Part shown: positions 1 to 6,000 of the stretch, one piece after another
How positions within the stretch are numbered: the first letter of the stretch is position 1
Layout of the letters: every line of letters begins with the position of its first letter
NCBI RefSeq assembly: GCF_003334815.1
Contig: NZ_QOWO01000053.1
Length of the DNA: 19,069 bases
From: Escherichia coli
GTDB lineage: Bacteria > Pseudomonadota > Gammaproteobacteria > Enterobacterales > Enterobacteriaceae
Direction: 5' to 3' (one strand)
Made by a program: the position numbers

Positions 1-3000
1 TGCAGTTGCCATGTTTTACGGCAGTGAGAGCAGAGATAGCGCTGATGTCCGGCGGTGCTTTTGCCGTTACGCACCACCCCGTCAGTAGCTGAACAGGAGG
101 GACAGCTGATAGAAACAGAAGCCACTGGAGCACCTCAAAAACACCATCATACACTAAATCAGTAAGTTGGCAGCATCACCAGCATGATGTATTCAATTCT
201 GCTTATTATGTTTCCTGTGGTGTTATCCGCAGGCATAAACATATTATGAAGAGCATCCTCAAGCAGGATTCGGGTTAAATCAGCGGTGGATATGGCTAAT
301 TGTTCGCTCATTATCCCCAGAACTTCTCTTACCCCTTGTGGGTAACGGACCTGCAGTGGTGTCGGGTTTATCTGACGACCGTTGATGAGTTTTTCGCCGA
401 TTGCTTTTTTGTCCAGCGAGAGCATCATTCGGGCCGCAATACCGGTCGTATTCAGTCTCATTGTTCCTCCGACTGAAAAAGTCTTTTCAGCTCATGTGGT
501 TATTGTATCTTCGGTGTTTTTTCTGGTGAAACGAATAATTTCGATCATGCAGATCGAATGTGTTTGGCGAGTTGTTGCAACTCGCCTTTCTGTATGTGTT
601 TTGAATGATGCTTACAACGAGGTGCTGCCCGGGTTCAGAGGGCAAATCATAATGTAGTCAGGGGCGTCGACCGCGATATCAATGCGGCACTCAACATCCG
701 GCAAAAAGGAATACTGGAACTAAAGGCGGCGGGACTCGTCGTCTCTGCCTATGGAGGCCAGCGTAAATCCGTCGCACAGACGGTTGCGGCCTGAGAAGTG
801 GGAAGCCTCGCCCGACAGGGCGGAGAGCAGTCACTATTTGGATATCAAACTTAATTGAGCGTTACACACGACGCAATACAACCTGTCTTATGCTCGTATT
901 TGTACCATTTACGTGAACCTGCTGGGCTCTCAACTACCTGGCAGTAGTGGGCATCCTCTGCGTTGCCCATTCTGGCAATGGCACAGAAGTCGAATTGCCC
1001 CAGATAACCTGTGTTGGAAAGCTGAGTAACTTTGAGTTTTCCACCTATTGTCCTCCACGTACCGGATTGGCACGAAAGTATTGCCCCTGTATTATCGCGG
1101 CCTACAAGGCCGTTAGGCGAACATGATGCGCCAGCAACGGCAGTTCTTTCCAGTTGTAAGTATTCACCAGTATAAAGGCGACCATCAGCACGAACAGTAC
1201 CGCCTTTCACCTGACCGCCGGTATAGATGCCCTTGTTGTTTACACTTCGAACCCATGATCCGTCGGACATATAAAATCCGCCACCGTGAGTTTCATTGAG
1301 CCAGCCTTTGCTGTTACGAGTAATTAACCAACCATTATTACTTCTGATATCACCGCCAGCGGTGACATTTACGTCAAAGTTTCCGCTATTGCCTTTTACC
1401 TGACCGCTGAAAGTGCCATTTACACCATTCACATTGCCGCTGAAATTACCAGTCTGGGCATTTACTGCCCCAACGTTATTCAGGTTATTTGATCCCATAT
1501 CAATGGCCGTGTGCATTTTGTTTAAGTCAGGGCGACCATTGACCTGGAATCTGTAAAGACGATCAGTGTCCTCTGCTGCACCACTAAGTTCATCTGTCGA
1601 TAACAGTACGGCAATATGCCCGTTGCCGCTTTTGGCACCATAATTACTTAAAGCTACTGACCAGGAACGTAATGCACCTGTGGCTGTTTTGCCGTCCTGG
1701 ATATATCCACCAAGACCAGTGGTAATATCCTTAGCCATCTGGATAAGTGCTTTCACTGGATAAGGGGTGCCACCACTGGATACAACCATTGCCTGTAGTA
1801 ATTCCGGGTTTTGGGTGTTTCGAACTACATATGCCTGTAACCGCTGCCCCTCGCTGTTTGTCTCAGTAAAGCCGCTGGACAAAAAGCCGGTATTTTTCAG
1901 CATGGTTGTCGTGATAACGGCAGGGGTTGTTGTGGTACTACTGGCCTGGAGAGTTGTGTAGTTTTTCCCTATATAAGAGCGGGCTGCACTGGCCCAGTTG
2001 CTGACAAGACGAGCTTCAGCCTGCCAACCTTTGGTTTTTAAATAGTCCTGCCATATGCCTGCACCCCAGGCAACTATGATCATAACAATCAATAAAGCCG
2101 CGCCAATTTCCAGCGATGCCCAGCCTCGGTCATATTTTTTCATCAGATTACCCATAGTGGTTGATAAAGATTATCCAGTAGCAAAAGGACATGGCCAAGA
2201 CACAGCCATGGACCCAGTGGGCCTTCTTTATGTCCTTTTATGCACCATGTTGAATGCCATAAGACAAATCCTCCTGCGCCCAGCAACACACTCCATATGG
2301 CGTTATATAGCCCTGACCATGCGGTAATACCTGCAATAAGCCACAGGTCTCCTGTGCCAATATTAAGACGATGGCGGTTAACCAGTTTATGCAGACAGAA
2401 TAAGACAATTGCGGCAGAGACAATTTCTGTTGCACGGAGCCACCATATATCAGTTGTGATTTGTGATAATATTCCAGCGATTAAAAAACGCCTGGTGAAT
2501 GTACCAGGTAAGAGGCCTGTTAGTGCATCCGTTACTGCCATTTGCAGCATGAACGAAAGAATAAGAACAGCATGAATACGGTAGAGAAGTTGGGATGGCG
2601 ATAAAATAATTAATGCCACAGCTATACTATATAGCCATATTCCTGACAGAACTGCAGTGTGTGTCTTATACCAGAGATGTTCTGTATCAGATAAAAAATA
2701 ACGAACTCTGAATAACAGAGTTCGTCCAATAATGGAAAATATGAACATCAATGGGAGGATATAAACAGGGGAGAGACTTATGCCTACGATTGTCTGCATT
2801 GTCTGCCTCCCTGCCCGGGAAGGCATATCCCTTTCATGTCACGATAAATTCTCCATACTTTATTAGCATATTGCTCTCTTGTTTCATGTCTGTCCTTACG
2901 GAATCCGGCATTGTATGATCCAAGGCAATTCCAGCTGACGCCACATATCTGAAAATGTCTTGCCAGTATCCAGCTTCCTATATGGATATTAAGACATGGT

Positions 3001-6000
3001 TTGGTAATTAAATCCTCAGACTTTTTGATTACGCCCATCTTTATAAGCTTTGGAATATGGGTTGAGTTTATTTGCATCAACCCATAATCCGTACTACTGG
3101 CTTTGCCTGTTTTTCTGTCCTTATTTATGTTAATTGCGCCCGGCTTCAATGAAGATTCCCCGGCAGAAATGGCCTTCAACAATAATGGTTCAATTTGATA
3201 GCGTGCGCCGGCGGCGGCAAAGCAATTGTCCCACTTGTTAGTCCAGATTTGTTTGGGGGCGATGTATGAAGCTCGGGCGGGATAAATAAGAGAACAAAGC
3301 AGGATTAATGAAATAAGTCTGAGGGGCACTTTACCCCCGGACATTAAAACTCCTTAGCCATTGATGGTGAAGATTAGTTTGTTTGTACCGGTGCTGCCAT
3401 TATCAGCTGTGCATTGCGCACTGGCTTCTTCAGTAGTGACTTTTCCATCATTGTGAGTCGTACTGTTCAGGGTAATACCGTTAGTTAAACCAGTACGACT
3501 GATTTGTGTGGCAATCTGGATACAGGCATCCTGTGGGACTTTTTCATAGGTGACGGTAAAACCATTGTTGAAACCTGATGTTGAAGCCGGAGCAACAGTT
3601 ACGGCACCGCCCCATGAGTTATAGAGCGTTGCTGTACCTGATGATGGAGTACCACGCACTGTCATAGTCTTGGGTACGCCACCCATCTGAATGAGAGCAC
3701 CCGTCATTTTGGCTCCACTGGTAAACGTATATCCATCGCTACCTTTTAGCAGCCCCTGAGTACTTGTGATGATTGTCTGTATGTTCGAACTTTCATTTGC
3801 CACACCGGTTCGTGAACGCAACATATACAATCCACCAAAAACAAGGGCAAGTACGATAATTACAACAAGTGCTATTGCACCCTGTTCCATAATACCCCAG
3901 CCTTTGTCATGAGACGTTTCTTTCTCATTTTTCTTCAGAGCGTTAACATCAATATTTTGGATTAACATAAATACCTCGTTTTATTTAAAGATTACCCATA
4001 CTGTTGTCGCCAATAGACTGAATGTCTACAACGGCCATGACCAGTAACAGGAGTGACATGACAAGAAATATCAGCATAATTAAACGCACAACAGCTGCTC
4101 GTTTTTTTACTCGCTCCAGCGTTTGTACAAGCCACCGTTGGCCATAATTGCCGATTAGCTCCGTTGCGCCATCTCCCTGTAATAAAGACAGGAAGTTAGC
4201 TGCTTCCCTGGATGGGAACTGATAACCGCACTGACGCAAAGCCAGCCCAAGGTGATCCCCCTGGCGTACGCGGTAAATAATGCTGTCAAGGCGTGTGCTT
4301 AACCATGGTGATGCAAAGTCCTGAAGAACGTTCAGTGAGTTGAGCGTTGTCATTTTGGCTTTCAGAAGTGCAGCCATATTCAGGAGGAATGCTGCCCCCT
4401 GTATATCCTTATAAATACTCCATGGCATTATATTGTCAGCCAAAGAGCGGCTTTTCCAGTTTTTCAGAGACCATGATATTACACCTGTGACCACTGCAAA
4501 AAGAACGGCACATATAGCGCCGTAATTATCGACAAACAAAGATAATCCATAGAGAAAACCAAGAGCACCACTCCATGAATCAGGGGAGCTTATTTTGCTC
4601 AGTACAGGTATTAGCTCTGTATTAAGAACATATAATGTCCCCGTCATCATGATTAACAACCCCACCGGGTAAATAGCCATTTGCCATATGGCCTGATGGA
4701 GTTGCTTTTTGGCATCTGTAAGTGTGGTGGCAAATTGTAATGCATCCACAATGGAACCACTTCTTATTCCGGCACTGATTACTGCAGCCTCTTCCTGGGG
4801 AACCCATAAACCAAGAGTATATTCCAGAGAGTTTTCGCCACTGTTTTCACGAAGAGACTCAATACAGTCTGTGGCCAGTTCAGCAAAGGGATGCCATTTT
4901 CGTCCAAAGTCTGTCCAGGCATCCCGCATCTGTTCCAGTGCGGTCTTTAATGGCTGTTTATTTTCCAGCAGAAAACGCAGAGCTTCGTAAAACTGCACCC
5001 TGTAGGGGGCGCTGAACGTTTTTCTGACAATGAAACGTCTCAGCCGTTGACTGAAATTCATTTCACGCATGTTGTTCTCCTGTTAGGCATCATCGATGCT
5101 GAGGCGTTCGTCTTCGTCCAGAGGGATGATTCTGTCGGCTTCAAGAGGGTCCACCAGGCCTTCATTGATACGGCGAAGCAGATGCTCCACACGACTGATG
5201 CCATGCATGTTTTCAAGCCAGTATTTACGTGCTGCAACTTTGCCGCGTGTTTTCAGAATCTGAAATAAGCGATTATCAGGTTCTATCACTTCAGCAATTA
5301 CGGTCCTGCCGGTGAGGCCTTTACCTATTTCACCGCGCTTTCTGCCGTTAATAATTACGTCGTGATTACAGTCGGAGCATCCGTGAGGATTTCGGAACCA
5401 GATATTATCTGTACTGCAGAGTGAATCTTTATTGCAGTGCCGCTCAAGGTAAGCGCGGTCGTCTTCGCTAAGTTCAGGTACTCGCTTTTCCCATGGAATA
5501 CGGCAGGAGGGACACAGAGTTGGTACAAGACGCTGGCTGATCATCCCAATCAGTAATTGCGCATCGCAAATAAGATCGGCATTCATACCCATCGTAATCA
5601 TCCGCTCCGGTATACCCAGAGCTGAGTTTGTATGTAATGTCGTCAGAACGATGTGACCGGTCTGAGCCGCGTAGGTTGTTGACATCATCGAGACAAGATC
5701 GCGCATTTCCCCTTCCATGATGGCATCGGGGTCAAGTCGCATTGCCGATGAAATAGCACGACTCCATGCCAGTTTGACGGCCTCTTCGTCGGATTTGTCA
5801 CAGATAATCGGGGTTTGTGTTGCCCCCAGAATCTGTCCTTCCAGCGGATCTTCGATCGTCAGCAGGTGTCGCCCCTGATTATCGTCAAGATATACACGGC
5901 AGGCACTGCGTAACGTTGTTGATTTACCTGAACCTGTTGGACCAGACAGAACTATTTTCCCTTCCGGGCGGCGCAGCATGACGTTCAGCAACCGGATTTG

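Follow-up and report, generated by a model that had tools for sequence, protein, structure and literature searches.

The thin-pilus locus of an Escherichia coli stretch of 19,069 nucleotides (contig NZ_QOWO01000053.1 of assembly GCF_003334815.1, referred to in its entirety as the window) raises the question of whether its two prepilins, PilS and PilV, are cut to the same unusual N-terminal residue, tryptophan, and by the same peptidase, PilU. A first-pass annotation of the window had noted, within the span 851-3968, a Gly/Trp junction with Glu at position +5 in both proteins. This span reaches from the stop of pilV to the start of pilS, with pilU and pilT inside it, and both strings were indeed found there in the translations. 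In our reading, PilS is the major and PilV the minor prepilin of a type IVb pilus, the conjugative thin pilus of IncI1 (R64-type) plasmids, and PilU generates their Trp N-termini. We put the probability of this reading at about 85%. The Gly/Trp site with Glu5 is already known from PilS and PilV of R64, and the observation is in this sense correct but ordinary. The role of PilU has likewise been described for R64 (both date from the late 1990s and 2000s), and processing of both pilins by PilU is no new prediction.

The PilS junction can be written as MLIQNIDVNALKKNEKETSHDKG / WGIMEQGAIALVVIIVLALVF… (here and below, the slash in a motif marks the predicted cut), reading …HDKG23/W24GIMEQG. The predicted mature PilS has 181 amino acids from Trp24, and both this length and the 23-residue leader are in the ranges given for type IVb major pilins (leader of 13-30, mature protein of about 180-240 amino acids). 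PilV starts with MKKYDRG7/W8ASLEIG, for a predicted mature start of WASLEIG…, and its leader of 7 residues is short compared with those of type IVb major pilins. In both proteins, the leader is short and hydrophilic or basic with Gly at -1 (…KKNEKETSHDKG in PilS, MKKYDRG in PilV), and Glu at +5 precedes a stretch of about 20 uncharged hydrophobic residues (for PilS, see WGIMEQGAIALVVIIVLALVF). A GAGG Shine-Dalgarno sequence is located 7 nucleotides ahead of the pilS ATG. For pilV, the longest open reading frame (ORF; 851-2155, minus strand) would add MGNL and give a leader of 11 residues. Because the ATG at 2143 overlaps with the pilU stop codon (TGATG) and is also the RefSeq start, it is most likely the true start, and the leader then has 7 residues. 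The choice of start leaves the cleavage site unchanged.

As a control for chance occurrence, we searched the whole window in all six frames for the pattern G-x-xxx-E with a run of 16 uncharged residues directly after it, of which 10 or more had to be strongly hydrophobic. The PilS and PilV sites were the only two matches, both with Trp at +1, and no further PilU substrates were found in the window by this motif scan. When Trp was made part of the pattern, 300 nucleotide shuffles of the window gave no match at all. When the residues of all ORF segments were shuffled instead, the mean was 0.004 matches, and none of 500 such shuffles had two or more.

Alignment to PilS and PilV of R64 (NC_005014), proposed in the first-pass annotation as a check, places the cut exactly where it had been suggested, ungapped for both proteins. 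R64 PilS aligns over 204 of 204 residues with 75% identity and reads …HDKG23/W24AILEQG, with HDKGW shared at residues 20-24 and Glu at position 28 of both proteins. R64 PilV starts with MKKYDRG7/W8ASLETG, and its constant region is 97% identical to that of the window over 367 amino acids. On the strength of this homology, PilS and PilV of the window are predicted to be cut after Gly(-1). The R64 prepilin is reportedly converted from 22 kDa to 19 kDa in a pilU-dependent manner, and the N-terminus of the product is reported to be blocked. A text search of the literature for 'Trp24' or 'N-terminal tryptophan' in combination with pilin returned unrelated papers only. Earlier work, as cited in later papers, includes a Gly/Trp cut predicted for a PilS homologue (after Kim and Komano, 1997), and, for R64 PilS itself, a failure of Glu5 mutants to assemble and a critical role of the -1 Gly (Horiuchi and Komano, 1998).

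PilS differs from its R64 counterpart at 13 of 23 positions in the leader and at 12 of 30 at the start of the mature protein, but at only 25 of 151 in the globular part. Within the most diverged part, the N-terminal one, the last four leader residues (HDKG), Trp+1, Glu+5, Gln+6 and Gly+7 are unchanged, a conserved island that points to a constraint on the processing site. The ratio of nonsynonymous to synonymous substitution rates (dN/dS) relative to R64 was computed for pilS (0.33), pilU (0.13), the pilV constant region (0.17), pilT (0.10) and pilQ (0.06), and all five values indicate purifying selection on the pil genes. As an observation in its own right, the clustering of PilS changes in the leader and the N-terminal hydrophobic helix, and not in the globular domain, is unusual for a type IV pilin. 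At the nucleotide level, pilS is 81% identical to R64 pilS, versus 92-97% for the flanking pil genes, which suggests a mosaic or recombinant origin.

The Gly/Trp junction is common among homologues. We collected 104 PilS homologues, about 96 of them with the N-terminus, and found Gly/Trp with Glu+5 in 78 of these 96 or so, down to about 50% identity; Gly at -1 was universal. More distant PilS homologues have Met (SPI-7-like, G/MSADAG, without Glu5), Ser, Val or Ile, Phe, Leu or Ala at +1. Among the best 120 PilV homologues, 67 have DRG/W (51 of them with Glu5 and 14 with Ser5), and 48 have the SPI-7-like KHDG/GFVAMS. Judging from these alignments, Trp+1 is a signature of the R64-like PilS/PilV clade rather than of all type IVb pilins, in agreement with reviews, which list Met, Leu, Trp or Ser as mature type IVb N-termini. 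The earlier description of the junction as a type IVb cleavage signature was thus right about its presence in both pilins, and too broad with respect to its distribution.

Family assignments agree with the pilin roles. PilS is matched by Pfam PilS (PF08805, E = 5e-39), and its residues 57-204 by the Salmonella Typhi PilS structure 1q5f (E = 1.6e-49); the PDB matches of PilS were all to S. Typhi PilS, 3fhu among them. The 1q5f and 3fhu constructs lack the N-terminal helix and give no view of the mature N-terminus. PilV is matched by Pfam Shufflon_N (PF04917, E = 2e-186); its N-terminus gives only a sub-threshold match to prepilin-peptidase-dependent protein in NCBIfam, and a PDB search with PilV gave no match. 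The NCBIfam search yielded no family for PilS or PilU. The S. Typhi or SPI-7-type system shares both Pfam families and the order of the genes (pilS-pilT-pilU-pilV), and its PilU is likewise short and limited to the peptidase. The classical type IVb pilins TcpA, BfpA and CofA and the PilS of the IncI2 plasmid TP114 resemble the PilS of the window in their long leader, large mature pilin, Glu5 and dedicated, operon-encoded peptidase. However, they belong to different pilin families, and the mature proteins begin with Met, Leu or Ser and not with Trp.

PilU has the features of an A24 prepilin peptidase. A Peptidase_A24 domain (PF01478) was found at residues 79-174 (E = 8.6e-8), with no other credible domain. 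When PilU is aligned with seven homologues encoded in R64-type loci (down to 19% identity, 207-228 amino acids in length), 11 columns are invariant, including the candidate catalytic residues Asp91 and Asp151, the latter in a G-x-G-D motif (GTGD). Two catalytic Asp residues are the expected arrangement in A24 prepilin peptidases (LaPointe and Taylor, 2000, as cited in later work). The Cys-rich N-terminal methyltransferase domain of PilD-type enzymes was not found in the 218-residue PilU by domain search, and PilU probably corresponds to the peptidase half of such an enzyme only. Without such a domain, PilU would not be expected to N-methylate Trp1. The sole match of PilU in a PDB search, a designed repeat protein, was dismissed as spurious.

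Taken together, these features would fit the following course of events. PilS and PilV would be made with short, hydrophilic class III leaders of 23 and 7 residues that end in Gly, and the hydrophobic segment would hold each prepilin in the inner membrane. PilU, presumably with Asp91 and Asp151 as catalytic residues, would then cut past Gly(-1) on the cytoplasmic face, and both mature pilins would start with Trp. Glu5 would be needed for assembly of the PilS filament, to which PilV would be added as an adhesin.

Table 1. Genes of the thin-pilus operon and elements of the predicted processing sites, with positions in the window.
Feature	Position	Strand	Description	Basis
pilL	10507-11574	-	thin-pilus operon	
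pilM	10070-10507	-	thin-pilus operon	
pilN	8374-10056	-	thin-pilus operon	
pilO	7086-8381	-	thin-pilus operon	
pilP	6647-7099	-	thin-pilus operon	
pilQ	5083-6636	-	thin-pilus operon	
pilR	3985-5070	-	thin-pilus operon	
pilS	3354-3968	-	type IVb major prepilin, 204 amino acids	ORF, Shine-Dalgarno sequence, PF08805, 1q5f, R64 identity
PilS leader	3900-3968	-	predicted class III signal peptide MLIQNIDVNALKKNEKETSHDKG, residues 1-23, last residue Gly23	translation
PilS mature N-terminus	3819-3899	-	predicted; Trp+1, Glu+5, hydrophobic alpha1-N, WGIMEQGAIALVVIIVLALVFGGLYML	translation, motif scan
PilS Gly23 codon	3902-3900	-	position -1	
PilS Trp24 codon	3899-3897	-	position +1	
PilS Glu28 codon	3887-3885	-	position +5	
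pilT	2784-3344	-	lytic transglycosylase of the pil operon	RefSeq annotation; NCBIfam IagB-like, E = 2e-37
pilU	2143-2799	-	prepilin peptidase, 218 amino acids	PF01478; 93% identical to R64 PilU
PilU Asp91 codon	2529-2527	-	candidate catalytic residue	
PilU Asp151 codon	2349-2347	-	candidate catalytic residue	
pilV	851-2143	-	minor pilin and tip adhesin, 430 amino acids	translation, PF04917, R64 identity
PilV leader and cleavage motif	2108-2143	-	predicted	motif scan, DNA reading
PilV Gly7 codon	2125-2123	-	position -1	
PilV Trp8 codon	2122-2120	-	position +1	
PilV Glu12 codon	2110-2108	-	position +5	

The residues at +1 tend to change together in the two pilins. We compared ten loci, namely the window, R64 and eight loci with diverged PilS homologues (Table 2). 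Trp is found in both pilins of four loci, and the remaining loci have identical or differing pairs of other residues. The otherwise near-universal Glu5 is absent from both pilins in L004 (SPI-7-like, PilS …PDQG/MSADAG and PilV …KHDG/GFVAMS, without Trp+1 as well) and in L007 (Yersinia enterocolitica). The short PilU without methyltransferase domain accompanies the co-varying +1 residues. The paired change would fit one shared peptidase or shared packing in the filament core; with ten loci of shared ancestry, it is supporting evidence and not proof. Whether Trp+1 determines specificity and is not just a neutral variant, through a lineage-specific match of PilU to the +1 residue or through a shared modification of Trp1, is more doubtful, and we put this forward as a tentative suggestion only. 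Even so, the paired +1 change offers a small handle on prepilin-peptidase specificity.

Table 2. Predicted cleavage junctions and paired +1 residues of PilS and PilV in the ten loci.
Locus	PilS	PilV	Residues at +1 (PilS, PilV)
window	G/WGIME	G/WASLE	Trp, Trp
R64	G/WAILE	G/WASLE	Trp, Trp
L008	G/WGILE	G/WAMMS	Trp, Trp
L009	G/WLSIE	G/WLVME	Trp, Trp
L005	G/SLTLIE	G/SLSLIE	Ser, Ser
L011	G/FLSIE	G/FLTVE	Phe, Phe
L006	G/VLSLE	G/ILSIE	Val, Ile
L010	G/LTLIE	G/FTLLE	Leu, Phe
L007	G/AADLLQ	G/GAQLLS	Ala, Gly
L004	G/MSADA	G/GFVAM	Met, Gly or Phe

Some points weigh against the proposed maturation of PilS and PilV to Trp N-termini by PilU. The support for the particular PilS/PilV allele of the window is sequence-based. 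In PilS, a second Gly follows two residues after the first (G-W-G, ahead of the hydrophobic stretch), and a cut at HDKGWG/IMEQG, which would leave PilS without an N-terminal Trp, is formally possible. We rejected Gly25 as the cut site and consider its use very unlikely: at +2, homologues have Gly or Ala (Ala in many of them and in R64, GWAILEQ), and this Gly is therefore not conserved, whereas Gly(-1) is invariant; Glu would be located at +3 instead of +5; and PilV has a single Gly at the corresponding place (DRG/WAS). Another possible objection concerns the enzyme. A24 prepilin peptidases are often promiscuous, and a chromosomal prepilin peptidase of the host (GspO or PppA of E. coli) could process the pilins instead of PilU or besides it. 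This seems very improbable, as a dedicated peptidase gene is located between pilS and pilV in every examined R64-type locus with Trp or another unusual residue at +1, and the two pilU-less loci (L010 and L011) have conventional Leu or Phe residues at this position. For R64, pilU is reportedly required for prepilin processing in E. coli.

The remaining points against concern the function of the allele. In RefSeq, PilS, PilT, PilU and PilV of the window share their protein accessions with the corresponding proteins of the E. coli W plasmid pRK1 (IncI1-gamma, NC_017665), for which Archer et al. (2011) argued that it probably forms no thin pili. Their grounds were the lack of rci and shufflon, three substitutions each in PilS and PilU at positions where R64 mutants are defective, and the failure of the cells to aggregate. 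The window likewise lacks rci and shufflon, and its traE is cut by an insertion sequence, IS1. Hence, the signatures may be intact in an otherwise impaired system, with PilS unprocessed or the pilus unassembled and the motif a mere relic. We regard this as unlikely, however. The ORFs from pilL to pilV are all intact, dN/dS against R64 amounts to 0.06-0.33 and not to about 1, and Asp91 and Asp151 of PilU as well as Gly(-1), Trp(+1) and Glu(+5) of both pilins are kept. The nearest PilS cluster at 90% identity (P0002, 96% identical to the PilS of the window) has 410 member sequences from 131 contigs. Moreover, that a laboratory mutation at some position is harmful does not make a natural substitution there evidence of inactivity. 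On balance, we favor processing of both pilins by PilU and their assembly into a thin pilus, bearing in mind that the pRK1-type allele set is widespread and that one paper argues against pilus formation.

Although the PilV of the window is a shufflon-type homologue, it lacks the switch. In contrast to R64, neither rci nor further shufflon segments are present in the window downstream of pilV, where only a TnpB pseudogene remnant (about 669-794), then traE, and IS1 were found. A single sfx-like 21-mer is left at 1054-1074, where the constant part of pilV meets the variable part. Alternative C-termini swapped by the Rci recombinase at sfx repeats, which characterize shufflon-type PilV, were not found. 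Over its C-terminal 74 amino acids, PilV shares 96% identity with the R64 shufflon segment that adjoins the constant region in inverted orientation, labelled A' in the pESBL table. As rci and the shufflon are missing, PilV is locked in one C-terminal form, of A' type. The layout downstream of pilV is the same in pRK1 (TnpB remnant, traE, no rci or shufflon), as Archer et al. (2011) had pointed out, and the switch is absent in the pRK1-type lineage.

The operon assignment, which the first-pass annotation took the signature to support, also holds. The first 6.7 kb of the window are 100% identical to RCS85_pI, a plasmid of E. coli ECOR3 (NZ_LT985321), and from base 180 onward, thousands of IncI1-type plasmids from Escherichia, Salmonella and Klebsiella are identical or nearly identical. 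The RefSeq annotation of RCS85_pI gives an IncI1 transfer region whose thin-pilus operon is complete and, in window coordinates, on the minus strand. As a whole, the window corresponds to an IncI1 plasmid's tra/pil region. The genes from pilL to pilV follow the R64 order, which is also that of the IncI1 thin pilus of ColIb-P9; pilT, between pilS and pilU, is outside the cleavage signature. The result confirms the annotation as an IncI1 thin-pilus operon, and nothing more.

Several observations concern the surroundings of the operon. The end of an IS1 element occupies positions 1-179 of the window and interrupts traE, whose 5' part is found at 180-461 on the minus strand. Plasmids other than RCS85_pI match from base 180 only, and the insertion was seen in the RCS85_pI record only, unlike pRK1, which has no IS1 in traE. 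Upstream of pilL, the window departs from R64 at 11903-13790, and the GC content drops to 36% around 11500-12500. The annotated pilJ (12493-12789) has a GTG start and encodes 98 amino acids, in a place where R64 has an ORF of 150 amino acids. The place of R64 traD is taken by an ORF of 183 amino acids (13239-13790) without NCBIfam match. Just upstream of traA, a match to the C4 antisense RNA (Rfam RF01695, 77.5 bits, E = 6e-14) was found at 16214-16301 on the minus strand, overlapping the mechanically called ORFs 15874-16182 and 16079-16342. The IncI1 replication control region is located at 17155-18347 on the plus strand, with the repZ pseudoknot (Rfam RF01087, 194.5 bits) at 17155-17303 and the RepA/RepZ initiator encoded by the ORF 17271-18347 (RepA_IncFII match, E = 2e-94).

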